Counted from the stretch's first letter, positions 5,951 to 43,967 are shown. The stretch is 44,301 bases of DNA from Minisyncoccota bacterium (GCA_028702045.1 JAQVPP010000001.1:1-44301), one strand, 5' to 3'. Notes: generated by a model from the sequence alone, not told the origin. Translations and numbers: made by a program.

Positions 5951-6502
5951 ATGGAAGATTATATCCCAATAACAAAACTTAACGATTTTATTTTTTGTCC
6001 CCTTTCTTTATATTTTAGATCTTGTTATAACAAGTTTAAAGAAAATCTTTTTTATCAAGAGAAAATAATAGAGGGTAAAATGGAACATGAAAAAATACAC
6101 CAAGATAAATTAAAAAATAGGTGAAAATTAATCAATTTTCCAGTTTATAGCTCTTACTATAAATTATTTGGAAAAATAGATGAATATGATGAAATAACCC
6201 AAGAATTAATAGAGTATAAAAATAACATAAACAAAGTTTATGATGGATATAAAATGCAATTATATGCACAGGCAAGATGTCTTGAAACAATGGGATATCA
6301 AGTTAAAAAAATAAAACTAAAATCCATCCAAACAAAAGAAGAAATAGAAATTGCTTTGCCATCCCGTACGGAAATGAAAAAATTTGAAAAATTAATTGAA
6401 AATATTAGATATTATGATATTTTTAAATACTTAAAATACCAAAATAAATGTCAAAATAAATGTCGTAAATGTATATACAAAGAACTTTGTAACGATGATT
6501 AG
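5951..6502 (+). CDS. cas4: CRISPR-associated exonuclease Cas4
   Basis: - One in-frame TGA (6122-6124).
- N-terminal Cys (FCPLSLYF).
- GKID and IEYK, i.e. the D...ExK nuclease core.
- C-terminal Cys cluster CRKCIYKELC.
- Lies directly upstream of cas1-cas2. Confidence 0.8.
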
Positions 6503-6504
6503 TT

Positions 6505-7464
6505 ATGTTAACACTACCAGATTTTAAAGAAAAACAAATTTTATTTATAAAAGGCAACAATAATTTAGAAAATACATTAAAGTTTTCTAATGAAAATTTA
6601 ATATTTTATAAAAATGGGAAAAAACATAGCCAATTATCATGTTATAAAATTTTAGCTATATTTTTGTATGGAGATTTTTCTGTAACAACTGTCTTATTAA
6701 GAAAATTTGATGAATATGGAATAGCAGTTTTCTTTTTAAAAAATAATTTAATGTCATATTGCTATTTTAATTTAGGATTAGGAAGTAATTATCTATTAAG
6801 AATTAAACAATACAAGCAGGAAAACGAAATAAATATTGCTAAAAAAATTATTAGAAATAAAATATATAACTCGCATTTACTCCTCAAAAAATACAACTAT
6901 TGCAACAACTCATATAATTTAGACGATATTTTCTCTAAAATTACCAAGGCAGAGGATTTAAAAACATTATTAGGCATTGAGGGCAGTTTTTCTAGAAATT
7001 ATTTTTTAAATTTATTTTGTAATAAAGAAGTAAATCTGAATTGGCGAGGCAGACAACCTAGATTAAAACAAAATATGGAGAATGTTTTGTTAGATATAGG
7101 ATATACTTTTCTGTTTAATTTTATAGATTCAATTTTAAATTTATTTGGATTCGATACTTATAAAGGGTTTTGCCATCAAGTTTTTTTTAAAAGAAAATCA
7201 CTATCTTGCGATATTATGGAGCCTTTTAGGTGTATTATTGATGAAACACTATATTTAATGTTTAAAAATAAAGAAGTTAATTCATATGATTTTGATATAA
7301 AACAAAAAATTTATTCATTAAAATACAATTGTAGTAAAAAATATTGCCAAGCTTTTTTACAAGCAATTTTAAAAAATAAAATAGAAATTTATAAGTATAT
7401 TAGAAATTTCTATTACTATATATTAAACGATAAAGAAGATTTTAATAAATTTATTTTAAAATAA
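6505..7464 (+). CDS. cas1: CRISPR-associated endonuclease Cas1
   Basis: 319-aa ORF packed tightly between cas4 and cas2. Size and position are canonical for a type V-A adaptation module. Confidence 0.85.
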   Translation: MLTLPDFKEKQILFIKGNNNLENTLKFSNENLIFYKNGKKHSQLSCYKILAIFLYGDFSVTTVLLRKFDEYGIAVFFLKNNLMSYCYFNLGLGSNYLLRIKQYKQENEINIAKKIIRNKIYNSHLLLKKYNYCNNSYNLDDIFSKITKAEDLKTLLGIEGSFSRNYFLNLFCNKEVNLNWRGRQPRLKQNMENVLLDIGYTFLFNFIDSILNLFGFDTYKGFCHQVFFKRKSLSCDIMEPFRCIIDETLYLMFKNKEVNSYDFDIKQKIYSLKYNCSKKYCQAFLQAILKNKIEIYKYIRNFYYYILNDKEDFNKFILK

Positions 7465-7468
7465 AAAT

Positions 7469-7750
7469 ATGATTATAGTTTCATACGACATTACTAATGA
7501 CAAATTAAGGTCTCAATTTTCCAAACTGTTAAAAAAATATGGAAGAAGATTACAATTTTCAGTATACGAAATTAAAAATAGTGCACGAATTTTAAATAAT
7601 CTTATTGTAGAAGTAGAGTCTCGTTATAAACCAAGATTCTGTAATTTAGACAGTATTATTATTTTCCATTATTGCGAATCTTGTAGTAAAAAAATAAAAA
7701 GATATGGCTATGCAGTTCATGCAGAAAAAGAGCTAGTATTTTTTGAATAA
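7469..7750 (+). CDS. cas2: CRISPR-associated endoribonuclease Cas2
   Basis: 93 aa. The N-terminus MIIVSYDIT has the conserved Asp in strand 1. Lies immediately before the array leader. Confidence 0.85.
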   Translation: MIIVSYDITNDKLRSQFSKLLKKYGRRLQFSVYEIKNSARILNNLIVEVESRYKPRFCNLDSIIIFHYCESCSKKIKRYGYAVHAEKELVFFE

Positions 7751-7951
7751 AATAGTTGCAGAAAAAGCATTTATTTGGTATTATTAATATATTGATAAGA
7801 ACTTTAACAAATTATTCACTGTAGAAAATTGATAGAAATTGCCGTGTGTGTATTAAAAATAAATTAAAAACATGTTGACAAAAAAGAAAATTATGTCCAA
7901 ATATATTTATTGATTTGTAGATCATAACTTGACTTTTTTGTCAACTGTACT
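7751..7951 (+). promoter_or_regulatory. CRISPR leader (AT-rich) with candidate promoters
   Basis: 201-nt AT-rich gap between cas2 and repeat 1. TTGACA at 7875-7880 and TTGACT at 7929-7934; the -10 elements are weak. Also contains a partial repeat-like segment at 7897-7922. Confidence 0.5.
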
Positions 7952-10900
7952 ATCTAATACATATATTCAATTTCTACTTTTGTAGATATAGTATATCCAT
8001 ATTATAATTTTAAATCTAATACATATATTCAATTTCTACTTTTGTAGATATATTGAGTTGTGGTCTGTATGTGAAATCTAATACATATATTCAATTTCTA
8101 CTTTTGTAGATAGACCGAGTGTCCTTATGGAGCATATCATCTAATACATATATTCAATTTCTACTTTTGTAGATTAGGTCTGAGTTCATTTTACCCCTCA
8201 TTATCTAATACATATATTCAATTTCTACTTTTGTAGATTTAGCTCAGAGCTTTTCCCACCTAAATCATCTAATACATATATTCAATTTCTACTTTTGTAG
8301 ATATGAACAGAACCACTCTTATTATTTAGATCTAATACATATATTCAATTTCTACTTTTGTAGATAAACACCAACCATCCTCTGTAAATTACATCTAATA
8401 CATATATTCAATTTCTACTTTTGTAGATGTGAAGTCTATTTTATACTCCCCTATCTTATCTAATACATATATTCAATTTCTACTTTTGTAGATAAAACAA
8501 TAGCTACTGCATATTCTAAAATATCTAATACATATATTCAATTTCTACTTTTGTAGATGTGTCGCCGTCTGCTTTTGCTTCTGTATAATCTAATACATAT
8601 ATTCAATTTCTACTTTTGTAGATATATGTGCTACTTCAGTTTTTCTAAAAATCTAATACATATATTCAATTTCTACTTTTGTAGATCAAATGATTTCATT
8701 AAATGTACCAAGGCTATCTAATACATATATTCAATTTCTACTTTTGTAGATAGCCCCTAACATTCTCATTACAAGTGAATATCTAATACATATATTCAAT
8801 TTCTACTTTTGTAGATGATACCCATTGTATCATTGCTAATTCTGAATCTAATACATATATTCAATTTCTACTTTTGTAGATGTGGGGTTTTCTTTAAAAG
8901 TGTTTTATCTAATACATATATTCAATTTCTACTTTTGTAGATATAATGAGTACCAACGCCTACAAATAACATCTAATACATATATTCAATTTCTACTTTT
9001 GTAGATGAGGAGGCGACACTTAGTCCTGTATCACAATCTAATACATATATTCAATTTCTACTTTTGTAGATTAAACCGTAAAGGAGAAATGACCAGTTAT
9101 CTAATACATATATTCAATTTCTACTTTTGTAGATCTATCGCCAATTGCTTCTCCTATAACCATCTAATACATATATTCAATTTCTACTTTTGTAGATAGG
9201 AGCTTGAAATAACAAGACCAGTAAAGATCTAATACATATATTCAATTTCTACTTTTGTAGATGTTAAGATAAACATATATGCCGACAACATCTAATACAT
9301 ATATTCAATTTCTACTTTTGTAGATATAATAGAGTTACTACAACAACACAAATCTAATACATATATTCAATTTCTACTTTTGTAGATAAGATCAATAAAC
9401 AAGCTTGGAATAAAGCCATCTAATACATATATTCAATTTCTACTTTTGTAGATGTATGGGTTTAATTAACAACTATATTAATCTAATACATATATTCAAT
9501 TTCTACTTTTGTAGATAAGAGCCTAATTATTGGTATAATAAATCTAATACATATATTCAATTTCTACTTTTGTAGATATTTATATATTCATCTATACTAT
9601 TTAACTATCTAATACATATATTCAATTTCTACTTTTGTAGATTGGAAGTGTTATGGAAGTAGGTGACTAAATCTAATACATATATTCAATTTCTACTTTT
9701 GTAGATAGGGTAAAACAATTACGGCGCAAGCGCTATCTAATACATATATTCAATTTCTACTTTTGTAGATCTTGTTTTAATAGCTTTAAAATATTTGTAT
9801 CTAATACATATATTCAATTTCTACTTTTGTAGATACTATATTAGTAATTATATTATCAGTTATCTAATACATATATTCAATTTCTACTTTTGTAGATCAG
9901 AACTACCAAACTGCTGTGTTCAGGAATATCTAATACATATATTCAATTTCTACTTTTGTAGATCAGAACTACCAAACTGCTGTGTTCAGGAATATCTAAT
10001 ACATATATTCAATTTCTACTTTTGTAGATATTAAATCAACTAACATTCTTATATAGAATCTAATACATATATTCAATTTCTACTTTTGTAGATGTTTGTT
10101 TGTTAAACTTGATGAAAAAAATCTAATACATATATTCAATTTCTACTTTTGTAGATCAGGGCCTGAAATTTCAAGCTCCTGAAAATCTAATACATATATT
10201 CAATTTCTACTTTTGTAGATATGTAGGTGAAAGCCCAGTTGACCCAAAATCTAATACATATATTCAATTTCTACTTTTGTAGATGTAAGTGTTTTTGTGT
10301 TCGTTGTATTAAATCTAATACATATATTCAATTTCTACTTTTGTAGATGATAGATGAGTGAAGATTTCAAGAAAATCTAATACATATATTCAATTTCTAC
10401 TTTTGTAGATTAACCTATAAATATGGAGTGACTAACAGAATCTAATACATATATTCAATTTCTACTTTTGTAGATTAGACGGTGCTATATAACCCCGTCT
10501 AGATCTAATACATATATTCAATTTCTACTTTTGTAGATAAATACATTATATAGATAATCAAAACCATCTAATACATATATTCAATTTCTACTTTTGTAGA
10601 TAGAAGAAAAACTTAAAGATTTTTTTAATCTAATACATATATTCAATTTCTACTTTTGTAGATATATCTATTATATTATCTTTTTCAAACTATCTAATAC
10701 ATATATTCAATTTCTACTTTTGTAGATTTAGTGTATATACACTCTTGACGCTAGAAGATCTAATACATATATTCAATTTCTACTTTTGTAGATGAAAGTC
10801 TGTTGATGAAATAAAACAACATCTAATACATATATTCAATTTCTACTTTTGTAGATAATATACCAATGTAATTACTATCAAATCTAATACATATATTCAA

Positions 10901-12701
10901 TTTCTACTTTTGTAGATTGAAATAAAATCATAATGATTAATTGCTATCTAATACATATATTCAATTTCTACTTTTGTAGATCAAAAGAATGTAAGGTTGA
11001 GTACCTGGATATCTAATACATATATTCAATTTCTACTTTTGTAGATGGTGATAATTATTCCTCCAAACTTAAAATCTAATACATATATTCAATTTCTACT
11101 TTTGTAGATAGTGTATAGTATTCCATCTTCTTTAATTATCTAATACATATATTCAATTTCTACTTTTGTAGATATATGGACCACGGTACAGTAAGGCGTA
11201 TCTAATACATATATTCAATTTCTACTTTTGTAGATTTAAGTCTAGTGCTTCTAGTAGTGATTATCTAATACATATATTCAATTTCTACTTTTGTAGATTA
11301 GGTGTATAATAACAAGCACGCCGAACATCTAATACATATATTCAATTTCTACTTTTGTAGATTAAAAGAGTTAAAACATTGTATCTCTTGCATCTAATAC
11401 ATATATTCAATTTCTACTTTTGTAGATTAGGAATATAGTCCTTATATTCAAAATATAATCTAATACATATATTCAATTTCTACTTTTGTAGATAATGAAA
11501 GTTGTAGCATAATCTTGATAGGATCTAATACATATATTCAATTTCTACTTTTGTAGATTCTTCTGGTAGTATACTCATTTCTTCAGATCTAATACATATA
11601 TTCAATTTCTACTTTTGTAGATTTTTGTTATGTGGGGGAGTATGGTTTCATCTAATACATATATTCAATTTCTACTTTTGTAGATATTTGTTAAAGTTTT
11701 GTATAATATTTTATCTAATACATATATTCAATTTCTACTTTTGTAGATGGTGTTGGGGCTCATCATCAAAATAGATATCTAATACATATATTCAATTTCT
11801 ACTTTTGTAGATTTAGCAGGTATATTTGTATATGCTATTGGCATCTAATACATATATTCAATTTCTACTTTTGTAGATTAGAAGAAGAAGATAGGTTGTG
11901 AAAAATCTAATACATATATTCAATTTCTACTTTTGTAGATGTGGAGATAATGAAAAACCACCTATAGAATCTAATACATATATTCAATTTCTACTTTTGT
12001 AGATACATGTCTTCTTTACTCATTATTTGTATATCTAATACATATATTCAATTTCTACTTTTGTAGATCCTGTGCCTCTAAGGTGTCAAGTAAAAGTATC
12101 TAATACATATATTCAATTTCTACTTTTGTAGATTAGTTCTTCTGTGTTTAGTTGAACTTTGGATCTAATACATATATTCAATTTCTACTTTTGTAGATAC
12201 AATGGTAGTAAGGTATAAATGTACATCTAATACATATATTCAATTTCTACTTTTGTAGATTAAAGTATCTGTGGGAATTGGGTTGTAATCTAATACATAT
12301 ATTCAATTTCTACTTTTGTAGATACAATGGTAGTAAGGTATAAATGTACATCTAATACATATATTCAATTTCTACTTTTGTAGATTCTTTCTAAATCTAC
12401 CCAACTATCCATCTAATACATATATTCAATTTCTACTTTTGTAGATATTGTAAAGTTAAAGAATTAAGGCTAGCAATCTAATACATATATTCAATTTCTA
12501 CTTTTGTAGATTCCATACCAATTCTTCAATAGATTAAAAATCTAATACATATATTCAATTTCTACTTTTGTAGATAGATGATAGTGTAAAGATACAAAAG
12601 AATCTAATACATATATTCAATTTCTACTTTTGTAGATGTCCCCTGTTGCTTTAACTGGTATGTCGATCTAATACATATATTCAATTTCTACTTTTGTAGA
12701 T
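7952..12701 (+). CRISPR. Type V-A CRISPR array, 75 repeats / 74 spacers
   Basis: The 36-nt repeat ATCTAATACATATATTCAATTTCTACTTTTGTAGAT is identical in every copy I read. Spacers are 25-30 nt (manual count). The repeat 3' end AATTTCTACTTTTGTAGAT is the Cas12a crRNA handle (stem TCTAC/GTAGA), so the array is transcribed on the + strand. Confidence 0.98.
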
Positions 12702-12780
12702 AGAAACAGAAGAAAATTAATTAGAAAAAAGTAATAAATAATAGTGTTCTTATATAAAAGCGACACTTAGGAAAATTCAG

Positions 12781-12809
12781 TTGATATTTTAAAAATAAAA
12801 TGCTATATT
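12781..12809 (+). promoter_or_regulatory. sigma-70 type promoter between array and cas12a
   Basis: TTGATA (12781-12786), 17-nt spacer, TGcTATATT extended -10 (12801-12809). Confidence 0.5.
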
Positions 12810-12860
12810 AATTATGTCGCCTAAAATTCTTATCGAAAAATATAATATGAAAATAATTTC

Positions 12861-12935
12861 AAAAAAGAGTAGCAATTCCAAAAAAACTTAACCGTTTGGT
12901 AAGAAATTTTTGGGCGACAATTGCTACTCTTTTTT
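12861..12935. terminator. long hairpin with flanking A/T runs (bidirectional terminator or attenuator)
   Basis: The 17-nt perfect arms AAAAAAGAGTAGCAATT / AATTGCTACTCTTTTTT enclose a second helix CCAAAAA / TTTTTGG. Located 38 nt upstream of the cas12a ATG. Confidence 0.6.
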
Positions 12936-12972
12936 GTAAAAATAAAAATTATAATCAATATAAATAATAAAT

Positions 12973-15900
12973 ATGAACACAAAATATTTTTCAGATATTT
13001 TTAACAAATATCAAGTAAGTAAAACCATTAGGTTTAGTTTAAAGCCTCAAGGAAGAACGAGGCAAACCTTGGAGGACAACAATATTATACCTAAAGACTC
13101 TTTAATATACAAAAGTTATTTACAAACAAAACCATATCTTGATGACATCCACAGGAAAATTATTCAACAAGGTTTATCAAAAATAGAGATTGAGATTTTT
13201 AAACCAATTACAGAATTATATTATCAGAAAAATATAAAAACTAATAAACAGGACAAAGAATGAAAAAGCACGAGAATACAAACATGCAAAGAAATTAATA
13301 GATATTTTCAAGAAGAAAAAGATATTTTAAAAAAGAAATATGACTCAAAGAACAAAGATTTTATTTGTTCTGGTAAAGTTTTAAATTATCTAAAGGATGA
13401 ATACCCCGCAAATAAAAGTAAAATTTTTGAGCAACAAGGGTTCCCCAGTTTATTTATCGAATACCAAGGTAAACACAAATATATATTTGATGTATTTGAT
13501 AAAATAACAACATATTTAATTCAATTTAACAAAAACAGAGAAAATCTTTATGAAAATGGAGATAAACATTCTTCAGTAGCATCAAGAGTGCTCAATAATT
13601 TTATTACTTTTTTAAATAATATCGACAAATATAAAAAATTACAAACTATAGAAGAATTAAAATTTTCCTCGGAAGAAAAAGATATTTTTCAAATAGAAAA
13701 TTATGTTTTTGCTTTAACTCAAGATCAAGTAAATAATTACAATAAAAATGTAGGAATATTAAACAAAAAAATTAAAGAAGCACGAGATAAAAATAAAAAA
13801 CTAAATCAAGAAAATTTTATAAAATCAAATTATGTTTTGCTAACTACTTTAGATAAGCAAATTTTAGGTAAAGTGAGTGCGGAAGACAACACAATAAATA
13901 ATAACCAAGAATTAAAAAAAGAGTTTGAATTATTTATACATAAAAGCAATATTTTTAAAGACGATTTTAAAAAATTTATAGAAAATTTCAAAAAACACAT
14001 TTTTATTAAAGAATATGAACATATTTTTTTGTCAAAAAAAATTATAAATACAATTTCTTATAAGTGATTCAAAAACCCTGAAAGTTTTGAATTTGCATTA
14101 CCCCAATCTTCGTCAAGCAAAAATAAAGAATACCCGCATCTTAAATCAATGATTTCTTTGTCAGAAATACAAAATGCATTAAACAATAATACACAAGTAG
14201 AAGGAAAGATATTCAAAGACAAGTATTATGAAGATCTATTCAAAAATCAAAATACTTTAAATAATAAAGATAATTATTTTGATCAATTTTTAGAAATATG
14301 GGAATATGAAGTAAATAATTTAATCCAAAAAACTCAAGATAACAATATAGAGATTGACTGAAATATTTTTAATCAATGCACAAGAAAAGACAAAAAATAT
14401 CAAAACGAAGTAGGAAAAATGAAAACTACGATAGATAATTTTTTAAGAGTTTATCAAATGGCTAATTATTTTCATATTTCACAAAAAAATAAATTAGCCT
14501 TTTCAGACTATTTTTACGGAGAGTTTTATTCTTTTTTTAATGAGTATAGGTTTAACGAATTCTACAATGCAATTAAAAATTTTTTAACAAAAAAAGAAAA
14601 TCAAGAGAATAAAATTAAATTAAACTTTGATTGTGGAACACTTTTAAGCGGGTTTGATAAAAATAAAGAAAAGGATAATCTAGGGATAATTCTAAGAAAA
14701 AAACAAAAATACTACCTAGGTATTTTGGTTAAAGGATATACTTCTTGTTTTGAGGATAAAAACTTGCCAAAAGAAGGAACAGATTATTATGAAAAAATGA
14801 CTTATAAACTATTCCCAGGTGCATTTAAAATGATTCCAAAGATTGCATGGGCCCCAACAAATCAAAAGCTTTTTAATCCATCTGATCAGCTTAAAACATT
14901 AAGGCAAGAATACAAAGAATATCAAGATGCAAAAAAAACCCAGAAAAACAACAAAATTCAATTTAGCGCAACGAAATTAGCAAAACTTATAGAATATTAT
15001 CAAAAAGTTTTACAACTTAGTGGGCATCAATCAGAGTTTAATTTACAATGAAAAGATCCTGCTGAATATTCAGGATTAGGTGAATTTAACAATGAGATTG
15101 ATAAGCAAGGTTATAAAATTAATTTTGATCAAAAAATTAACAGTGATTATATAGATAAATTAGTAGAAGAGGGTAAGCTATATTTATTTCAGATATATAC
15201 TAAAGATTTTTCAGAAAAATCTAACAAAATAAATAAAAATTTAAATACTTTGTATTTTTTAAATTTATTCTCAGATGAAAATATTAAAAATAAAGAGAAA
15301 AAAATTAAATTGTCAGGTAATGCAGAAATATTTTTTAGGCCAAAAAACAAAAAACCTAATAAAAAAATTGATAACAAGGGCAATTCTATTGTAGACCATA
15401 AAAGATATGCAGAAGATGCATTTTTATTACATTTATCTATTGTTTTAAATAACAATGTTCCTTCTCCTCATGCAGGACTTGAAAAATCGTTTAATCAAAA
15501 TATTAATGAAAAAATTATTGGAGACAAAAATGTTAACATCATTGGAATAGATAGAGGAGAAAAACACTTATTATATTACAGTGTAATTAATCAAAATCAA
15601 GAAATATTAGAACAAGGTAGTTTGAATACTATTAATGGTAAACCTTATTTTGATTTATTAAATCAAAGAGAAAAAGAAAAACTAGGACAAAAGCAAAGTT
15701 GATTTGCCATAGGAAACATTAAAGATTTAAAAAAAGGGTATTTATCCGAAGTTGTTAAAAAAATATGTGATCTAGTGGTTCAATATAATGCCATTGTGGT
15801 TTTAGAAAACTTAAATATGAGATTCAAGCAAATTCGTGGGGGGATTGAAAAAAGTGTTTATCAACAATTTGAAAAAGCATTAATAGATAAATTAGGATAT

Positions 15901-16857
15901 TTAGTTTTTAAACAATTAAAAGCTAGTGAAGCAGGGGGGGTTATTAATGGATACCAACTTGTGGCCCCTTTTGAATCTTTTGAAAAAATGGGAAACCAAA
16001 CAGGCATCTTATTTTATACTCAAGCAAATTATACATCAATTACAGACCCTCTAACTGGTTTTAGAAAGAATATTTATATTAGTAATTCTTGAAGTCAAGA
16101 AAAAATAAAAGAAAACATCTATAAATTTACTAGAATTTATTGAGATGATATAGAAAAAAGCTTTGTATTTACTTATAATCCAAATGATTTTGTTAATCAA
16201 AAAATTAAAAAACAAAAGTTTAAATATCGAGATTGTAGTGTATATTCTAAAATACCCAGGATAAGAAGATATAGAAATGAGAAAGATCATTGAGAATATG
16301 AAGTAATAGACTTGAATAAAGAATTTAAAAACTTATTTGAAAGTTGAGGAATAAATTATAAAGCAGATAATATAGTCGAAGAGATTAAGAATAATGAAAA
16401 AAATTTAACAGGCAAAAAAACAATTTTTTTACAAAATAGTAGTATAAATAAAAATTTCTTTAACCAATTTATATATTTATTTAATTTAATATTACAAATA
16501 AGAAATTCTTTTTCCAAAAAATATATTATAGATATTGATAAAAATACAGGAAAAGAAACAATAACACAAAAGGGAGAAGATGTTGATTTTATAGCATCTC
16601 CAGTTAAGCCTTTCTTCTCAACTTTTGCTCAAGATTCTAAAAGTCAAATAATTTCTCCGCTAAATTTACAATCTATTAAAGAAAGAATTATAAGTAATGA
16701 CAAGGACAGAATAGCGAGGGAATTTAATGGAGACGCCAATGGTGCTTATAATATAGCTAGAAAAGGAATAATTCTATTAAACAAAATACGTGAAAACACC
16801 GAAAAACCAGATTTATATATTTTTAAGGAAGATTGAGACAAATTTAATAATCAATAA
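12973..16857 (+). CDS. cas12a: Cas12a (Cpf1) type V-A effector, 1294 codons, 10 in-frame TGA
   Basis: - Six track ORFs (12973-16092) plus a tail to TAA at 16855-16857 are all in frame 1.
- The only interruptions are TGA at 13261, 14065, 14359, 15049, 15700, 16090, 16141, 16291, 16345 and 16834.
- N-terminus KTIRFSLKPQGRT.
- FNKNRENLY motif.
- KLFPGAFKMIPK (PAM-interacting region).
- GKLYLFQIYTKDFS.
- RuvC-I IGIDRGEKHLLYY.
- RuvC-II AIVVLENLNMRFK.
- Nuc LQIRNS.
- RuvC-III GDANGAYNIARKG. Confidence 0.93.
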
Positions 16858-16859
16858 AA

Positions 16860-16892
16860 GAAAATGTGCTCAAAAGAGCACATTTTCTTTTT
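16860..16892 (+). terminator. intrinsic terminator after cas12a
   Basis: GAAAATGTGCTC / GAGCACATTTTC 12-bp stem, AAAA loop, T-run. Confidence 0.8.
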
Positions 16893-21417: not shown

Positions 21418-22848
21418 ATGGATTTTAAAAGCGATCCAAAAGAAGAGGAGAGACTCTCTTTTGTGCAAAAACATAATCTAGACAGTCAGGAAAATGATGC
21501 TAAGTCTTTAGCTCAAGAATTAGATTTGCCATATATTTATTTATTAAAAACCCAAATACAAACAGACGCACTAAAAGAAGTTTCAAAAGAAACAGCTCAA
21601 AAATTAAAACTCATTTGTTTTAATAAAAGAGGTAGTATATTAGATATAGCCATTGTTAACCTATCTAAAGAAGTCAAGGAGTTGAAGCAAGAACTAGAGA
21701 AAAAAGATTTTGAGATAAATCTATATGTCTGCTCACTTGTTAGTTTTGATTATGCTTTAGAGAAGTATAGTCTAGTACCTAAGGATAGAGAAGTAATCAC
21801 AGGAGAAATCAATATTAGTGACTCAAAATATATTCCATTTAATGATTTAAATGAATTTGATTTGTCTAACTTAACAACTAACTTTGTTCTAAACATTATT
21901 TTAAAAAGTGCCATTTATTCTAATGTATCAGATATCCACATAAACCCTCAAAAAGAATCTTGTCAGATAAAGTTTAGAATAGATGGTTTGTTATATAATG
22001 TTTTAGAATTAAATAAAGAAGAATATACTCAAATCAAAAACAGAATTAAATTGTTAGCTAATTTAAAGATAAATATCTTAAATACTCCTCAAGATGGTAG
22101 GTTCACTATTCTTGATAAAGAAAATTATGAGGTAAGACTTTCATCTATTCCAGGTAACAATGGGGAGATCTTAGTCATGCGTATACTAGATCCAAGCAAG
22201 ATTACTTTAAAATTAAACGATCTAGGTATTAATGATTATGAATTAAAACTAATTAATCTAATTTTAAAATCAACCAATGGCGGAGTATTAGTCACAGGAC
22301 CAACAGGATCTGGTAAGACTACTACCCTATACGCTATGTTAAAGGAAAAATTAAACAAAGGCCTCAATATTACAACCATAGAAGATCCTATTGAATATAA
22401 AATTAAAGAGATAAATCAAACTCAAGTAAATGAGAAACAAGGATATGATTTTGCTAATGGACTAAGGTCTATAGTAAGACAAGATCCAGATATTATACTA
22501 GTAGGAGAGATACGTGATAGGGAGACTGCCCAGATAGCTAGTCAAGCATCACTTACAGGCCACTTACTCCTATCTACACTTCACACAAATGAAGCAGCAG
22601 CTACAATAATGAGGTTAAAGGAATTTGGTATAGACCATGATACCATATCTTCTTTTTTAAGAATAATCATAGCTCAAAGATTATGTAGAAAATTATGCCC
22701 TCATTGTATGGAAAAGTATGTCCCATCACAAGAAGTAAAGAATCAACTAAAGAATATATTAAGCATCTTGTCATACAAGACTGGAATTAATATTCCAGAT
22801 GATATTAAGTACTTATACAGGAGTAAAGGGTGTGAAAAGTGTAATAAT
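21418..22848 (+). CDS. PilB/GspE-type secretion ATPase, unit 1 (reading frame breaks at about 22848)
   Basis: - N-terminal T2SSE_N-like domain.
- Walker A GPTGSGKTTT.
- DPDIILVGEIRD.
- TGHLLLSTLHTN.
- Cys motif CPHC...GCEKCNN.
- Beyond 22848 this frame yields a non-homologous tail (LDTRDKQVFLKFYF...), whereas the -1 frame continues with the expected SRYKGQTGLFEVL. Confidence 0.8.
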
Positions 22849-24344
22849 CTAGATACAAGGGACAAACAGGTCTTTTTGAAGTTCTATTTTTCAACGATAT
22901 CATCAAAGATGCTGTAAAAAATAAAGAATCTTTAGAAAGTTTAAGAAAAATAGCTATAGAAGAAGGTATGATTCCATTAATTCATTCTGGAATCTTAAAA
23001 GCTATAGATGGCCAGACATCTCTTGAAGAAATATATAGAGTTTGTGGTGACATATCTTACGCCGAAGAACTGTATCAAAGCTTATTAGCTGATAAGTTAG
23101 ACAATAAGATAATATTAGATAATGATCTTTACGATAACATCCAAAAAGCATTATCAAATTTTGAAATAATTCAAGATTTAATTTCTAAATCAACTACCAA
23201 AACCATATTCCAAATAATTAATATTTGTGCTTTATTATATAATGCATCTGATATACATATTGAGCCACAAGAGGATAGGATTTCCATTAGATATAGGATA
23301 GATGGAATTTTAACAGACAAATTTACTTTACCAAAAGAAGAATATATTTCATTTGTTTCATACTTAAAACAACTAATTAATTTAGAAACAGATGCAGGTA
23401 ATATCAAAGAGGGCAGATATTCTGTAGAAAAAGATACTAAGACTGACATCAGAGTTTCTATTGTTCCTAGTGGATATGGAGAAACTATTGTTTTAAGATT
23501 CTTAAAAACAAATATAAACCTAGATCTAGACTCACTTGGCTTTGATACAGATGACATAGAAAAGATATATACAGCCAAAAATAATCCATCAGGAATAATA
23601 CTTGCTTGCGGTCCTACATCTTCAGGTAAAACCACTACAATCTACTCTATTTTAAAATTACTTAATGATAAATCCAAAAAGATCTTAACCATAGAAGATC
23701 CTATTGAGTATACAGTAGACAATGTTATTCAAACTCAAGTAGATATAGACAAGGATTACACCTTCTCTAACGCATTAAAGGGGTTTTTACGTCAAAATCC
23801 AGATATTATTCTAGTAGGAGAGATACGTGATAAAGAAACTGCTCAAGTAGCCGTACAGGCATCACTTACAGGTCACTTAATCTTATCTACTCTCCACACT
23901 ATAGATATTTCTTCATCACTTTTACGACTACAAAACTTTGATATTAATAAAGAGGAATTGCTAAATAGTATTAATTGCTTAATTGCTCAACGATTATCAA
24001 GAAGACTATGCCCACACTGTAAAAAGAAAGTATTATTAAATAATTTCCAAAAAGAAAAAATTCAGCAAGTCTTAAACATTACTCCTCCAGAATATATCTA
24101 TGAGGCAGTAGGTTGTGAGCAATGTTCTTTTACAGGGTACAAAGGTCAAATAGGTTTATTTGAAGTATTAGTGCTCAATGATAGTATCAGAAAGCAACTA
24201 ACTCAATCTCTAGAAGATAAAAACTTCAAAGAAACCATTTATTCTCTCACAGATTCTTTATTAAAGGATGCCTTAAATAAATTAATCCAAGGCAACACTG
24301 ATGTTAAGGAAATAGAAAGAGTTTTAGGAAATAAAATATTTTAA
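22848..24344 (+). CDS. continuation of unit 1 C-terminus fused in frame to a second complete PilB/GspE ATPase unit
   Basis: Frame 3 is open from 22848. It reads YKGQTGLFEVL...GMIPLIHSGILKAIDGQTSLEEIYRV (the canonical PilB C-terminus). With no stop, a second unit follows: SDIHIEPQ, GPTSSGKTTT, DPDIILVGEIRD, TGHLILSTLHT, CPHC...GCEQCSFTGYKGQIGLFEVL. Confidence 0.75.
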   Translation, partial: SRYKGQTGLFEVLFFNDIIKDAVKNKESLESLRKIAIEEGMIPLIHSGILKAIDGQTSLEEIYRVCGDISYAEELYQSLLADKLDNKIILDNDLYDNIQKALSNFEIIQDLISKSTTKTIFQIINICALLYNASDIHIEPQEDRISIRYRIDGILTDKFTLPKEEYISFVSYLKQLINLETDAGNIKEGRYSVEKDTKTDIRVSIVPSGYGETIVLRFLKTNINLDLDSLGFDTDDIEKIYTAKNNPSGIILACGPTSSGKTTTIYSILKLLNDKSKKILTIEDPIEYTVDNVIQTQVDIDKDYTFSNALKGFLRQNPDIILVGEIRDKETAQVAVQASLTGHLILSTLHTIDISSSLLRLQNFDINKEELLNSINCLIAQRLSRRLCPHCKKKVLLNNFQKEKIQQVLNITPPEYIYEAVGCEQCSFTGYKGQIGLFEVLVLNDSIRKQLTQSLEDKNFKETIYSLTDSLLKDALNKLIQGNTDVKEIERVLGNKIF

Positions 24345-36769: not shown

Positions 36770-37408
36770 ATGGGAAAAAATATAAAAGATATCGTAAAAA
36801 ATATGCCTTTATTTTCCAAACAAAATATAGCAATATATTATAAAGGGAAAATTAATACATTAAACGCTCAGATTAAATATGCTTTTAAGACTGGTGATAT
36901 TTTAAAGCTTAAAAATGGACTTTACATGTCTAATGATTTTTATATTAGAACTAAAGATAAAGATGGTTTAAAAGAATATATTGCTAGTCAATTAAAAAGT
37001 CCTTCTTATTTAAGTCGAGAATATGTTATGCAAAAATATAATTTACTAACAGAAGCAATATATGGCATTACTTCGGTTACGTTAAAAACTAGGAAACAAT
37101 ATCAGAATTTTTTAGGATCTTTTATTTATTATTCTATAAAAAAAGATTTTTATTTTGGATATGATGAAAAAAGATTTCTTTCTAATGTTTATTTTGAAGC
37201 TAATAAATCTAAGGCAGTTTTTGATTATTTATATCTTAAAAAAAATATTAGTAAAAATTTAAAGCAAGAAATTTTGGAAGATTTGCGTATTAATTGAGAA
37301 AATTTTTCAAAAAATGATTTTAATTTATTTTATGATTATTGTTTAAAATCAAAATCCAAAAAAATGAAACGTATTGCCAATATTTTAAAAAAAAGTATTT
37401 ATAAATAA
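36770..37408 (+). CDS. abiEi: AbiEi-like antitoxin / transcriptional regulator
   Basis: Track ORF 36770-37297 continues through a TGA at 37295 to TAA at 37406-37408. About 210 aa and lies directly upstream of an AbiEii/DUF1814 gene. The LKNGLYM segment resembles the AbiEi N-terminal domain. Confidence 0.55.
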
Positions 37409-37413
37409 AAAAT

Positions 37414-38247
37414 ATGATTTTACAAGAATTAAAAACAATTGTTGATAATAAAATCCAAGCTGATATACCCAAAGAAGCAATTCGGAATCTTTTAAAACAA
37501 CATCTTCAGTATTATTTTTTGAATTTTTTATATAATTCTGATTATGGCAGACATCTAATTTTTATTGGTGGCAGTGCCTTACGTGTTTGTTATGGTTTAA
37601 ATAGATTATCTGAAGATATTGATATGGATATTGAAAAAGGAGCTACTATTAATAAAAAAGAGTTAGCAGAAGATATATTAAAATATTTTAAACAAAAATT
37701 TTTATTTAATAATTTAGAATATTCCATCTCTGGTCATTATGAAAAAATATATTTTAAGTTTCCTATTCTTAAAGAATTAGGTCTTGCTGCTGATAATGAC
37801 TCTGATAAACTTTATGTTAAATTAGAAATATCAGATGCAATTTCTGGATCCTATACAACTGAGTTAACAGCTATTTCCGCTCTAGGTTTTAATTTTATAA
37901 TTAGAAATTACAATCTAGAGACATTAATGGCTTCTAAAATCTGTGCAATTTTTACACGCAAATATTTTAAAGGTAAAGACGATAACTATAATTTTAAAGG
38001 TAGGGATTACTTTGATCTTCTCTGGTATTTGCAAAAAGGGATAATTCCAAATATGGAATTTATTAAAGACACTTTAAAAATTGATAATTTAGAAGAATTA
38101 TATTTAAAATTAAATGATTTAGTTCAAAAAATTAATATTAAATATTTGAAAGAAGATTTAGTTCCACTTTTTGAAGATGGGGCTTTTATTGAAAAATATT
38201 GCGAGAATTATAAAACAATGGCTCAACAATTCTTATCTAAAAAATAA
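37414..38247 (+). CDS. abiEii: AbiEii/AbiGii family nucleotidyltransferase toxin (DUF1814)
   Basis: 277 aa. The LIFIGGSALRVCYGLNRLSEDIDMD motif is typical of the family (GG-AL...R-S-D-D). Confidence 0.75.
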   Translation: MILQELKTIVDNKIQADIPKEAIRNLLKQHLQYYFLNFLYNSDYGRHLIFIGGSALRVCYGLNRLSEDIDMDIEKGATINKKELAEDILKYFKQKFLFNNLEYSISGHYEKIYFKFPILKELGLAADNDSDKLYVKLEISDAISGSYTTELTAISALGFNFIIRNYNLETLMASKICAIFTRKYFKGKDDNYNFKGRDYFDLLWYLQKGIIPNMEFIKDTLKIDNLEELYLKLNDLVQKINIKYLKEDLVPLFEDGAFIEKYCENYKTMAQQFLSKK

Positions 38248-39813: not shown

Positions 39814-40710
39814 ATGTTTGAAAAAAAATTAATAATAGTTGGAGATGATTTAGCTAAAGACTTGTCCAAAAGTCTAAAAGCAAATTATCTACCAGTAGAG
39901 CACAGGACTTTTCCTGATGGAGAAATTAAGCCTAGGATTTTAAAACTATCCAAAGCTAAAGTCGGAGTTCTTCTTTTAGATATGTATCAAGATGAAGATA
40001 TTAATGCATATATTATCCGTTTCTTAATCTTAGCTAACAGGCTAAAACAAGAGTGTAATAAGCTTATTGGTATTATTCCATACTTACCATATGCCAGACA
40101 GGACAAAGAGTTCAAGCCAGGTGACAGTATATCAGCTAAAATAATTGGAGGATTTATTAGCCAATACTGTGATTATTTCTTAACTATAAACCCTCATGAG
40201 CACAGACTAATTTTATCAGAAATGGTTACTTGTTTGTCTAAGTCTCTTTCTATTTTCCCAGAATGTGCAAAAGAGTTTAGTGATGTAAAAGATCCATTAG
40301 TCATAGGTCCAGATTCAGAAGCAGCTGCTTTTGTTAAGAGTTTTGTTCAAAACATAGAGATGGAGACAGTTGTTTGTGAGAAAAAGAGAGACATCACTCA
40401 TGGTACAGTACAAGTATCTGTACCCAAAGAAGTAAGTCTTAAGGACAGGAACCTTATCATAGTTGATGATGTAGTTTCTACAGGAGGTACTTTATTAAAA
40501 CTAGTCTTGCAGTTAAAAGAACATCAGCCAAAATCAATTAGCTATGTATTTGCTCATGGACTTTTAGTAGGCGATACAGAAGATATGTTGAAAAAAACTA
40601 ATCCACTTAAAATAGTTGCTTCTAATTCTATTAGAAATGAGTTTGGTGTTGTAGATTGTATTCCTATACTAAAACAAGAAATAGAAAATTATTTAAAATT
40701 AATAAAATAA
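39814..40710 (+). CDS. prs: ribose-phosphate pyrophosphokinase
   Basis: FPDGE, the YARQDK-type loop (LPYARQDKEF) and the PRPP-binding motif IIVDDVVSTGGTL. Confidence 0.85.
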   Translation: MFEKKLIIVGDDLAKDLSKSLKANYLPVEHRTFPDGEIKPRILKLSKAKVGVLLLDMYQDEDINAYIIRFLILANRLKQECNKLIGIIPYLPYARQDKEFKPGDSISAKIIGGFISQYCDYFLTINPHEHRLILSEMVTCLSKSLSIFPECAKEFSDVKDPLVIGPDSEAAAFVKSFVQNIEMETVVCEKKRDITHGTVQVSVPKEVSLKDRNLIIVDDVVSTGGTLLKLVLQLKEHQPKSISYVFAHGLLVGDTEDMLKKTNPLKIVASNSIRNEFGVVDCIPILKQEIENYLKLIK

Positions 40711-40711
40711 T

Positions 40712-42202
40712 ATGAATTATTTTCCTTTAAAAACAAAGCATATAGATATAGACACTGATGATGGTTTCAAGGTTGTTGTAAATGACAACACTGCTTTAAA
40801 ATATTCTTTAAAAAATAAAGATACTATTTATTTTTATTTCAATAATCAAGAGGTATATGCTGAAGTATTTACCACAGCCTCACTACTAGGTGATGATGAG
40901 ATAGGTCTATGTCAAGGACTAAGAGAAATATATGATATCCCAGAAAATGAAATTTTAAAAATATATTTTGCAGAAGAGTCTCTAGGTTTAAAAGCTATTC
41001 ACAAAAAACTTTTAGGCAACAGATTAACTTATGAGGATTGTTTAAACATAATGAACGATCTAGTAGTTAACAAGATTAATGATGTAGAGACTGCCTTTTT
41101 CATTGCTCTTGGTTTTCAGAAAAATCCATTTACAATTCAAGAACTCTGTTATCTATCCAAAGCACAAGCCGTAGTAGGTGATTGCTTAAAGTTTAATGGC
41201 ATAGTTGCAGACAAGCACTCTGTAGGAGGTCTCAGTGGTAATAGGACTACACCTATAGTTGTAGCTATTGTTGCTAGTTTTAATATTATTATCCCTAAAA
41301 CATCATCTCGTGCCATTACTTCAGTGGCAGGTACAGCCGATACTTTAGAGACAATAATGGATGTATCTTTTAGCACTAATGAGATATATAAGCTAATTGA
41401 AAAAAACAATGCTTGTATGATCTGGGGAGGGGCCATCAACTTATCTCCAACTGATGATATTTTTATTAAAATAACCAAAGATTTAGGCATAGAACCAACA
41501 TATAAATTAATTACTAGTATCTTATCTAAAAAAATAGCTACAGGCGTTAATAGATTAATTATAGATATCCCAGTTAATAAAACAGCCAAAGTAAAAAGCA
41601 TAAAAGAGGCCCTAAAGGTTAAAAAAATGTTTGAAAAAGTGTCAAAGTTTTTAAAAATTAAAACAAAAGTTATTATCTCTAAATCAACAGGTATAATAGG
41701 TAATGGTGTAGGTCCTGCACTAGAGATTAGAGATGTCTTGCGTGTACTTCAGCAAAAAGAAAATAGATCAATAGATCTAGAAGACAAGGCAGTTAATCTA
41801 GCAGGAAGCTTACTTAACTTATGTGGAATAAAAAATGGAGTTAAGCAGGCTAGAGAAAGTCTAAAAACAGGTAAAGCCTTGCTCAAGTTTAGGGAAATCA
41901 TAGATGCACAAAATGGTGACTATAATATAGATTCTGAAGATATACAATTAGCTAAATATTCATATGAGTTTAAGTTAAATAAAAAGGGCATAGTCCCTGA
42001 GTATAATAATGATGACATAGTAGATTTATGTAAGATGCTAGGTGCTCCACAAAACAAGCGCTCTGGAATATATTTTAATAAAAAAACCAATGAAAATTAT
42101 ACCTATGATGATGTTATCTTTACCATATATTCAGACAATGAGAGTAGGATAAATATAGCTAAAGATATTATTAAAGAAACTTTTGATCCATTATTTAAAT
42201 AG
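40712..42202 (+). CDS. AMP phosphorylase / thymidine phosphorylase family protein (archaeal DeoA-like, with N-terminal extension)
   Basis: 496 aa. DKHSVGGLSGNRTTPIVVAIVAS...PKTSSRAITSVAGTADTLE is typical of the family. The extra N-terminal domain of about 85 aa matches archaeal/CPR AMP phosphorylases. Confidence 0.75.
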   Translation: MNYFPLKTKHIDIDTDDGFKVVVNDNTALKYSLKNKDTIYFYFNNQEVYAEVFTTASLLGDDEIGLCQGLREIYDIPENEILKIYFAEESLGLKAIHKKLLGNRLTYEDCLNIMNDLVVNKINDVETAFFIALGFQKNPFTIQELCYLSKAQAVVGDCLKFNGIVADKHSVGGLSGNRTTPIVVAIVASFNIIIPKTSSRAITSVAGTADTLETIMDVSFSTNEIYKLIEKNNACMIWGGAINLSPTDDIFIKITKDLGIEPTYKLITSILSKKIATGVNRLIIDIPVNKTAKVKSIKEALKVKKMFEKVSKFLKIKTKVIISKSTGIIGNGVGPALEIRDVLRVLQQKENRSIDLEDKAVNLAGSLLNLCGIKNGVKQARESLKTGKALLKFREIIDAQNGDYNIDSEDIQLAKYSYEFKLNKKGIVPEYNNDDIVDLCKMLGAPQNKRSGIYFNKKTNENYTYDDVIFTIYSDNESRINIAKDIIKETFDPLFK

Positions 42203-42422: not shown

Positions 42423-43967
42423 ATGATAGACTATATAATTTTTACAATAGCTGGTATTGCAGTTGGTTATTTAATTAAGCATATTTCTGTAAAATCAAAA
42501 AACAATTCTATAGAAACAAAATTAAATTCAACTATACAAGCTAAAAAGGAAGAGGCTAAGAAAATAATCCTAGACTCCAAGGAAGAATCTAAAAAAATAA
42601 TTTTAGAAGCTGAAGAAAAAGCAGCTGATATCTTAAAGGAATTAAGAAAAGAAGAATCAGTTATCAAAGATAAGTTAAATAAAACTGAGGACAGACTTCT
42701 TAAAAAAGAGGAGTTTATAGATCAAAAACAACTAAACATTGATAAAGAAAAAGAAAAACTTAATCAAGATATTGAGAAAGTTCAAAGCATCAAAGAAAGT
42801 ATTGAAAAAATAAAACAAGAAACAGAAGAAAAGTTAAATAAAGTATCAGGTCTTTCTAAAGAAGAGGCTAAGAATCTTTTATTACAAAAAATAGAAGATG
42901 AGTCAAAAGATGATCTTTACCAATATGTTAAAAAATTAGAAACAACCAATAAGGAAGAAATAGAGAAAAAGGTTCAAAATATAATGCAAACAGCAGTACA
43001 GCGTTATGCTCATGAGAATAATTCTGAAAACCTAATCACAACAGTTGCCTTGCCAAATGAAGAAATCAAAGGTAGGATAATTGGTAAGGAGGGAAGAAAT
43101 ATACATCATTTTGAAAAAATCACAGGAGTAGAGTTAATTATAGATGACACTCCAGATGTTATTACTATCTCATCATTTAACCCTGTAAGAAGAGAAGTGG
43201 CTCGTTTGGCTTTAGAAAAATTAATTCAAGATGGTAGGATTCAGCCAGCTAAAATAGAAGAAAAAGTAGCTTGAGCAGAAGAAGAGATCAAGAAATTAAT
43301 TAAAAAAGCAGGCGAAGATGCTATTTATGAAATAGGTATATTAGATTTACCACAAGAATTAACTTTCTTACTTGGTAGATTAAACTACAGAACCAGTTAT
43401 GGCCAAAATGTACTCAGACACTCTTTGGAAGTAGCTAGTTTGGCCTCCATGATTGCTTTAGAGCTAGGGGCTAATGTAGATGTAGCTAAAAAATCAGGAT
43501 TACTTCATGATATAGGTAAATCCATTGATTATGAAACAGAAGGTACTCATGTTGAGCTAGGTAAGAGGATTTTACAAAAATATGGCGTTAAAAAGGAAAT
43601 TATTGATGCCATGGAGTCTCATCATGAAGATGTACCTATTAGTAGCTTAGAAGGGGCTATTATAGCTGCTGCAGACGCTATTTCTGCTTCACGTCCAGGT
43701 GCAAGAAAAGAGTCTTTGGAAAAATACTTAAAAAGACTACATGATCTTGAGGAAATTGCTAATGTATTTAACAAAGTAAAGAAGAGTTATGCTATACAAG
43801 CTGGTAGAGAGATTAGAGTATTTGTTGATGCAGAGAATACAGATGACTACACACCCCTAAAACTAGCTAAAGACATTGCTAAAAAAATAGAAGAAGAACT
43901 AAAATACCCAGGTGAGATTAAGGTCGTAATCATTCGTGAGAAAAGAGCTATAGAATACGCAAGATAA
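42423..43967 (+). CDS. rny: ribonuclease Y
   Basis: - Track ORFs 42423-43274 and 43425-43967 share one frame, joined by a TGA at 43272.
- N-terminal TM segment and coiled coil.
- KH domain [11 protein letters not shown].
- [22 protein letters not shown].
- HD domain LLHDIGK. Confidence 0.92.

Follow-up and report, generated by a model that had tools for sequence, protein, structure and literature searches.

Evidence for an intact, divergent Cas12a effector translated with UGA as tryptophan in a type V-A CRISPR-Cas locus of Patescibacteria

The stretch of DNA analyzed here, 44,301 nucleotides (nt) from a Minisyncoccota bacterium (GCA_028702045.1, JAQVPP010000001.1:1-44301), carries a CRISPR-Cas locus in the order cas4-cas1-cas2-leader-array-cas12a (5951-16857), with all elements on the plus strand. 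We refer to the whole stretch as the window and give all coordinates as window positions (Table 1). The last gene of the locus, cas12a, is the subject of this report; its frame was read on the plus strand. As translated, it is a single frame from ATG to TAA with 1294 sense codons, closed by the TAA at 16855-16857, and since the nearest upstream in-frame TAA lies at 12961, the ATG at 12973 is its first possible start. Ten in-frame stops fall inside this frame, at codons 97 (nt 13261), 365 (14065), 463 (14359), 693 (15049), 910 (15700), 1040 (16090), 1057 (16141), 1107 (16291), 1125 (16345) and 1288 (16834). Every one of them is TGA; internal TAA and TAG codons number zero. The TGA codons delimit pieces of 96, 267, 97, 229, 216, 129, 16, 49, 17, 162 and 6 codons, seven of which reach at least 60 codons, and a listing of open reading frames (ORFs) under the standard code (table 11) gives six separate ORFs of at least 60 amino acids (aa) with start codons in this frame. 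The reverse strand of the region contains no long frame. No frameshift was found in the read-through product, which full-length homologues cover over 99-100% of its length. The G+C (GC) content of the gene is 24.1%, compared with 27.0% for the window, and its ratio of TGA to TGG codons is 10:2, compared with 44:17 in the other 37 window genes.

The read-through product scores 643.2 bits against the NCBIfam equivalog TIGR04330 (cas_Cpf1, type V CRISPR-associated protein Cas12a/Cpf1; cut-off 300), and its Pfam matches are RuvC_1 (5e-78), NUC (6.5e-14) and Cpf1_PI-like (1.7e-12, aa 616-714). A phmmer search against the PDB matched 26 distinct Cas12a sequences with solved structures; the best match was ReChb (1.3e-127, residues 4-1183 aligned), and further matches included Lb2Cas12a (5e-122), FnCas12a (7e-119), AsCas12a (4e-109) and LbCas12a (6e-102). 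An alignment of 11 Cas12a sequences (A1) served as the basis for judging column invariance, and the RuvC and Nuc residues located in this way are listed in Table 1. We take R1177 of the Nuc motif to be the equivalent of R1218 in FnCas12a and R1226 in AsCas12a; likewise, the WED segment SGFDKNKEKDN is presumably the equivalent of the AsCas12a segment S542/K548/N552, which reads the protospacer-adjacent motif (PAM). At the level of sequence, the PAM-reading segments of the PAM-interacting (PI) and WED domains are both conserved, and a T-rich 5′ PAM is predicted from them. We assign the protein to Cas12a, the type V-A effector, at full length and with intact DNase residues.

Table 1. Features of the type V-A locus and of its Cas12a product, in window coordinates
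Feature	Position	Strand	Evidence and remarks
cas4, type V subtype	5951..6502	+	Pfam Cas_Cas4 6e-9; TIGR04328 cas4_PREFRAN 147 bits (cut-off 70); 1 in-frame UGA
cas1	6505..7464	+	Pfam Cas_Cas1 2e-48; TIGR04329 cas1_PREFRAN 297 bits, just below cut-off 300
cas2, 93 aa	7469..7750	+	Pfam CRISPR_Cas2 1e-15; TIGR01573 48 bits (cut-off 24.5)
AT-rich leader, ~200 nt	7751..7951	+	Between cas2 and first repeat; read from sequence; kept in metagenome relative L082
CRISPR array	7952..12701	+	75 identical 36-nt repeats ATCTAATACATATATTCAATTTCTACTTTTGTAGAT, 74 spacers of 25-30 nt; TRF period 64, exact parsing
Long hairpin followed by U-run	12860..12936	+	Between array and cas12a; -31.8 kcal/mol, z = -8.1 vs shuffles; no Rfam match
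cas12a	12973..16857	+	1294 codons, 10 UGA = Trp; domain, family-model and homologue matches
WED segment SGFDKNKEKDN, aa 559-569	14647..14679	+	Aligns to ...GWDVNKETDN... of ReChb/Lb2Cas12a
PI-domain loop KMIPK, aa 619-623	14827..14841	+	Aligns to KMLPK of canonical Cas12a; Pfam Cpf1_PI-like
WED-III linker, aa 789-812, short, IDNKG + VDHKRY	15337..15408	+	Replaces H...NKN...IKD[KR]RY (alignments)
RuvC-I motif IGIDRGE, aa 857-863, D860	15541..15561	+	D860 column nearly invariant in A1
RuvC-II motif VVLENLN, aa 942-948, E945	15796..15816	+	E945 column invariant in A1
Nuc-domain motif LQIRNS, aa 1174-1179, R1177	16492..16509	+	Pfam NUC 6.5e-14; R1177 nearly invariant in A1
RuvC-III motif GDANGAY, aa 1253-1259, D1254	16729..16749	+	D1254 column invariant in A1
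Bidirectional intrinsic-terminator-like hairpin, 16-bp stem	16856..16891		Directly after cas12a stop codon

To determine which amino acid UGA encodes, the ten UGA positions of Cas12a were replaced by X before the protein was aligned with homologues for which the standard code had been used in translation. Trp occupies column 910 in 13 of the 13 covering homologues and column 1288 in 12 of 13. At columns 365, 1057 and 1107 it is found in the three closest relatives, and most other sequences have Trp or Tyr there; aromatic residues predominate at columns 693 and 1125, and column 97 holds hydrophobic ones. Gly stands at none of the ten columns in this alignment. When BLOSUM62 scores were summed over the UGA columns of 74 standard-code Cas12a from GTDB, Trp ranked first among the 20 amino acids (+28.1) and Gly scored -21.0, whereas three cas12a genes written in code 25, used as controls, ranked Gly at the top (+66 to +73) and gave Trp a score of about -110. 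Other genes of the window give the same picture. In YchF, 'etraXti' aligns to 'evraWti' of the E. coli and H. influenzae proteins; in GlyRS, UGA74 corresponds to Trp in 120 of 120 homologues and UGA254 in 111 of 120; and in-frame TGA codons at Trp columns also occur in RNase Y, a Mur ligase and UvrC. Across the 38 delimited window genes, 54 TGA and 19 TGG codons together make up 0.63% of codons, beside 508 GGN codons for Gly, and the genes end in TAA (34) or TAG (4), none in TGA. From the UGA columns in Cas12a, YchF and GlyRS together with these codon counts, we conclude that UGA is read as Trp (table 4) and not as Gly (table 25).

The claims checked here came from a sequence-only reading of the window, and all that could be checked were borne out. 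That reading had described an intact but recoded Cas12a of 1294 aa with 10 UGA codons, broken by the standard code into at least seven fragments, which agrees with the single frame at 12973-16857 and its seven longer TGA-delimited pieces. Its three RuvC motifs, LQIRNS and KMIPK could all be located, as could its canonical CRISPR RNA (crRNA) handle, which lies in the 75-repeat array and thus outside cas12a itself. Neither an overlooked TAA or TAG nor a frameshift came to light over the 1294 codons, and D860, E945, D1254 and R1177 are all kept on alignment. The choice between tables 4 and 25 had been left open, with the suggestion that the UGA columns would reveal the encoded amino acid; they do so in favor of table 4.

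Relatives of the protein were sought in 185,000 GTDB species genomes and in a collection of 5.8 billion proteins, and 80 loci were fetched. The best full-length homologues in the protein collection are 41% identical, and among 501 Cas12a-encoding stretches in the GTDB species genomes the best reach 40-47% identity over conserved columns. A neighbor-joining tree places the window protein within a clade of Cas12a from the candidate phyla radiation (CPR; L002-L009 and L022), so that the divergent Cas12a foreseen by the earlier reading has its closest relatives, at about 41-47% identity, among CPR Cas12a. One further candidate for a close relative (L027) was set aside: it reaches 51% identity in its best segment, but the gene is frameshifted or split and the genome has 41% GC. 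In 4 of the 80 fetched loci cas12a is continuous only when UGA is read through. Three of these, L060 (CP060226.1), L064 (DIUG01000052.1; UBA6164) and L079 (SAAG01000006.1; INTA.CYC.027), carry 45-47 UGA codons on Gly columns, as expected of code 25. The fourth, L028 (JAQUMQ010000100.1; 25% GC), has six, five of them on Trp columns, as expected of code 4; the Cas12a it encodes shares only 34% identity with the window protein, and its Actinomycetota label is probably wrong. A separate observation concerns P0007, a cluster of the protein collection with 43 members on contigs of about 340 kb. Its Cas12a entry shows Trp where Gly is conserved (IWIDRWE and NWDANWAYNIARKW, with NWDANWAY as a further example) and is a code-25 gene translated with table 4, the opposite annotation error.

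One region in which the protein departs from canonical Cas12a is the WED-III linker. Canonical Cas12a in the alignment carry H...NKN...IKD[KR]RY across the residues of the pre-crRNA RNase, which we take to be H843/K852/K869 in Fn, H800/K809/K860 in As and H759/K768/K785 in Lb. The linker of the window protein is RPKNKKPNKKIDNKGNSIVDHKRY; in this loop, the alignment of which is uncertain, Lys stands in the His column and Asp in the K869 column, flanked by a His (VDHKRY). A short linker with a recurrent [VI][DN]HKRY runs through the whole CPR clade of Cas12a, seen in about 30 sequences, code-25 ones included (L002-L026, L028, L032, L040, L060, L064 and L079). Because this clade-specific VDHKRY stands in place of the His/Lys/Lys triad, the route of pre-crRNA cleavage is uncertain and cannot be read off by homology; VDHKRY may represent a relocated catalytic His.

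The adaptation genes and the array complete the locus. Besides the type V model listed in Table 1, cas1 passes the generic TIGR00287 (138 bits, cut-off 71.7). The last repeat of the array is identical to the other 74. The repeat ends at its 3′ terminus in AATTTCTACTTTTGTAGAT, and its 3′ 19 nt are the canonical Cas12a handle, with a predicted fold of a 5-bp UCUAC/GUAGA stem and a 4-nt loop, in an orientation consistent with plus-strand transcription from the leader. Spacer GC is 32%, compared with 27% for the window. Two spacers are duplicated, 31 = 32 as adjacent copies and 67 = 69 (regions 9898-9993 and 12199-12349). The usual order of such loci is cas12a-cas4-cas1-cas2-array, as seen in the closest Woesebacteria locus (L001/L003), and the window order is a permutation of it. 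Judged by its gene, leader and repeat content, the locus is classed as a complete type V-A system. Among JGI metagenomes, the sole relative found with the full repeat (L082; Ga0172377_10289309, 1392 bp) matches window positions 6620-7987 at 85.5% DNA identity across cas1, cas2, leader and first repeat, with 87% aa identity in Cas1 and 93.5% in Cas2. Its repeat is identical to that of the window and its first spacer differs; a partial repeat remnant, TTTGTAGAT, and a TTGACA box are both retained in the shared leader. Such a pattern is what one would expect of a conserved system that acquires spacers, and the 75 identical repeats suggest that the system is active.

Around the array, the long hairpin and U-run upstream of cas12a may serve to terminate the array transcript or may form a structure in the 5′ untranslated region of cas12a; Rfam recognized no other RNA near the CRISPR-Cas locus. 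Promoter-like sites are no commoner than in shuffled sequence (68 found, 85 expected), and we therefore claim no promoter. Searches for spacer targets were negative throughout. Eight spacers, used at full length or as their 22-nt PAM-proximal part, had no exact match in IMG/VR; blastn of the whole array against the INPHARED phages gave chance-level matches only (E at least 0.03); the spacers had only chance matches of 15-20 nt in the 80 fetched loci or elsewhere in the window; and no self-targets were present within the window.

The window is chromosomal, with housekeeping genes on both sides of the CRISPR-Cas locus. These include TsaE, GlyRS, SmpB, an ECF-type sigma factor, a Mur ligase, YchF, TatD, ribosomal protein L19 and UvrC, and the window also encodes two T2SSE/PilB-type ATPases, a phosphoribosyl pyrophosphate (PRPP) synthase, a thymidine/AMP-phosphorylase-like protein and RNase Y. 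The tRNAs present are tRNA-Leu(UAA), tRNA-Val(UAC) and tRNA-Leu(AAG); the window contains neither rRNA nor a phylogenomic marker set. The best matches of GlyRS (about 60% identity) and RNase Y (about 62%) are, where named, all from Patescibacteria, under labels such as Paceibacterota, Minisyncoccia, Parcubacteria, Nealsonbacteria, Wolfebacteria and similar. From GlyRS, RNase Y and the Cas12a relatives the host is placed in the Patescibacteria/CPR, of the Paceibacteria/Minisyncoccia type. Two reports describe the reassignment of UGA to Trp in the Patescibacteriota for the first time in 2026, in the class Minisyncoccia, and assign it to the family JAKLIH01 (order UBA6257) and the genus GCA-2747955 (PMC13092985; bioRxiv 10.64898/2026.05.24.727570); genes of JAKLIH01 stop at UAA in about 82-88% of cases, at UAG in about 12-18% and at UGA in about 0% (PMC13092985). 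The passages of these reports that were consulted make no mention of CRISPR-Cas.

Several further features of the window were noted in passing. RNase Y (42423-43967) has a 100% identical full-length copy on short Logan contigs from SRR22315503 and SRR22315506 (P0150; L083 and L084), where it was called with UGA as Trp. In the public collection the window's own copy of RNase Y is represented by no more than a 283-aa fragment ending at a UGA (P0242), an illustration of the sequence-only reading's claim that standard-code annotation misses such genes. The region 36770-38247 encodes an AbiEii nucleotidyltransferase toxin (37414-38247; Pfam 2e-24), immediately preceded by an ORF that is probably the antitoxin, and an RloB-like protein is encoded at 45-548, at the left edge of the window (Pfam 4e-29). 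The T2SSE/PilB-type ATPase genes stand in tandem at 21418-24344, neither with an in-frame UGA; the first matches Pfam T2SSE at 4e-104, and the second has an open frame reaching back to 22848, inside the first gene (which ends at 22917), although its first ATG lies at 22968. The PRPP-synthase-like and thymidine/AMP-phosphorylase-like genes are adjacent (39814-42202), a pair reminiscent of the nucleoside-salvage pathway reported from CPR bacteria (PMC5113843).

Taken together, these data lead us to conclude with high confidence that the window encodes an intact Cas12a effector, at the end of a complete type V-A locus, in a Patescibacteria/CPR host that translates UGA as Trp. Several points weigh against this conclusion or limit it. 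Cas12a function is argued from conservation, and the PAM and targets are likewise only predicted, the searches of IMG/VR, INPHARED and the fetched loci having yielded no protospacer. Three of the ten UGA columns (97, 463 and 1040) are variable or gapped: gaps dominate column 463, and column 1040 varies, with Ala in the three closest relatives. A tRNA-Trp(UCA) is absent from the 44-kb window. In the RNase loop, which is hard to align, only the equivalent of FnCas12a K852 (K802 in IDNKG) aligns, while those of H843 and K869 do not. Finally, no GTDB species representative matches the genome at high identity, so that the host is placed no more finely than the Paceibacteria/Minisyncoccia type.

A decayed cas12a in a standard-code genome, with the 10 TGA codons as real premature stops, would account for the ten breaks that table 11 introduces into the frame. 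All ten interruptions, however, are TGA, with no TAA, TAG or frameshift over 1294 codons, all catalytic residues are intact and the 75 repeats are identical; the TGA codons lie on conserved Trp or aromatic columns, which refutes such a reading, and the essential genes for GlyRS, YchF, RNase Y, the Mur ligase and UvrC share in-frame TGA codons at Trp columns. We therefore regard a pseudogene as extremely improbable. Equally improbable is a reading of UGA as Gly (code 25), as in Absconditabacteria/BD1-5 (GTDB class JAEDAM01), the classical recoded CPR lineages. It has in its favor that the host is a low-GC member of the Patescibacteria, a phylum in which UGA as Gly was the only recoding known before 2026, and that public genomes do contain cas12a with about 45 UGA codons for Gly (L060, L064 and L079). 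Yet no UGA column is Gly in the homologues of Cas12a, GlyRS or YchF, the summed scores favor Trp over Gly, the gene has 10 TGA codons rather than the 45-47 of code-25 cas12a, and the combined frequency of TGA and TGG in the window is Trp-like, set against the far more numerous GGN codons. A recent arrival of the locus by horizontal transfer or on a phage or plasmid is also very unlikely, despite the rarity of CRISPR-Cas among CPR bacteria (PMC6509639), an unusual gene order in which the array precedes cas12a, and the presence of AbiEii and RloB as further defense genes in the window. The locus is flanked on both sides by TsaE, GlyRS, SmpB, YchF, L19, UvrC and RNase Y, its nearest relatives are themselves from CPR bacteria, and the GC content and TGA:TGG ratio of cas12a match the rest of the window, from which we conclude that the gene has long been resident in the recoded lineage. 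Moreover, standard-code relatives have TGG at no fewer than five ancestral Trp columns where the window gene has TGA, a change that needs evolution inside a host with UGA as Trp and so speaks against recent arrival.

The way in which crRNA would mature is less clear. An intact DNase might be combined with non-canonical maturation, either through a relocated RNase site (His809 in VDHKRY) or through a host RNase; we consider this possible, though the less probable alternative. It would fit the replacement of H...NKN...IKD[KR]RY by the short linker and [VI][DN]HKRY in the window protein and its roughly 30 CPR counterparts. On the other side, the loop is poorly alignable and nearby Lys and His residues (KNKKPNKKIDNKG...DHKRY) could supply catalysis, the repeat keeps exactly the canonical handle and stem recognized by the Cas12a RNase, and members of the CPR clade, from Parcubacteria, Dojkabacteria and Roizmanbacteria, have been listed as ordinary Cas12a since 2015, according to a paper citing Zetsche et al. 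(PMC6509639). A broader proposal, that this is the first described native CRISPR-Cas system in UGA-to-Trp Patescibacteria (Minisyncoccia) and that it belongs to a CPR-wide Cas12a subclass with a relocated or different RNase site, is put forward only tentatively. If it were true, crRNA biogenesis in the CPR clade would differ mechanistically from that of Fn, As and Lb Cas12a, and UGA recoding would act as a barrier that keeps the effector, perhaps along with its phages, within code-4 hosts.

For the intact Cas12a that we favor, the following mode of action is proposed. Cas4, Cas1 and Cas2 would insert spacers of 25-30 nt at the leader end of the array, which would be transcribed on the plus strand. 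Cas12a would bind the UCUAC-UUUU-GUAGA pseudoknot handle of each repeat, a trans-activating crRNA (tracrRNA) not being needed, and would recognize a T-rich 5′ PAM through contacts of K565 (NKEK) and K619 (KMIPK). Formation of an R-loop would then be followed by a staggered cut of both DNA strands by the single RuvC site (D860/E945/D1254), helped by R1177 of the Nuc domain.

The protein is a new and rather divergent Cas12a within a known family, with at most about 47% identity to entries of GTDB and the 5.8-billion-protein collection, and it is not a new type of system; our understanding of the Cas12a mechanism, or of recoding, is unchanged by it. It is, though, invisible to standard-code pipelines, and a version with TGG in place of the 10 TGA codons would make it testable. 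It also shows that a lineage in which CRISPR is rare nonetheless keeps a large array with 75 identical repeats. That most Trp codons of cas12a have turned to UGA speaks for long evolution inside a host reading UGA as Trp, and the gene thereby offers independent support, at the level of single genes, for the reassignment first reported in Patescibacteria in 2026. Codes 4 and 25 can further be distinguished from one gene in a simple way, by whether it has 10 UGA codons on Trp columns, as here, or about 45 on Gly columns, as in other CPR cas12a genes.

In comparison with the well-known Fn, As and Lb Cas12a, the window protein shares full-length homology (E 1e-100 to 1e-127) and passes the same TIGR04330 model; it has the RuvC D/E/D and Nuc Arg residues, the KM(L/I)PK and NKEK segments and the Trp of the lid/bridge region (W910) in common with them, as well as a AAUUUCUAC-N4-GUAGAU repeat handle that needs no tracrRNA and a cas4-cas1-cas2 module. 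It differs from them in that identity is only about 30%, 10 Trp codons are UGA, the WED-III linker is short and the RNase triad not conserved, and cas12a lies downstream of the array rather than upstream of cas4. With the CPR Cas12a of L002-L009 and L022 it shares the clade, the short linker, [VI][DN]HKRY and a setting in small, low-GC genomes. Those relatives, however, use the standard code, with 0-3 TGA codons in the longest frame, and have the usual gene order (for example L001/L003); the two closest proteins, P0002 and P0003, are without the KMLPK loop, whereas the window protein retains KMIPK.

Recoded class 2 effectors are not unprecedented. The code-25 cas12a genes (L060, L064, L079 and the P0007 cluster) are likewise intact, fragmented by standard annotation and from the same broad CPR radiation, but differ in placing their UGA codons on Gly columns. 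Our literature search found no paper combining 'Cas12a' and 'Gracilibacteria'. The cas9 genes of Mollicutes, which use code 4, contain a mean of 9 UGA codons and a maximum of 18 (PMC6882279). They resemble the window gene in encoding a class 2 effector in a host with UGA as Trp, in low-GC amelioration and in not being expressible in standard-code hosts (PMC6882279); they differ in belonging to type II systems with a tracrRNA, to the phylum Bacillota and to an independent recoding event. Since CPR Cas12a, recoded Cas9 and code-25 cas12a were all known already, the present finding is not surprising in principle. The window also bears an indirect likeness to JAKLIH01 and GCA-2747955: UGA is Trp in both these lineages and the window, GlyRS and RNase Y give the same signal at the level of phylum and class, and the stop usage of JAKLIH01 resembles the 34 TAA and 4 TAG counted here.

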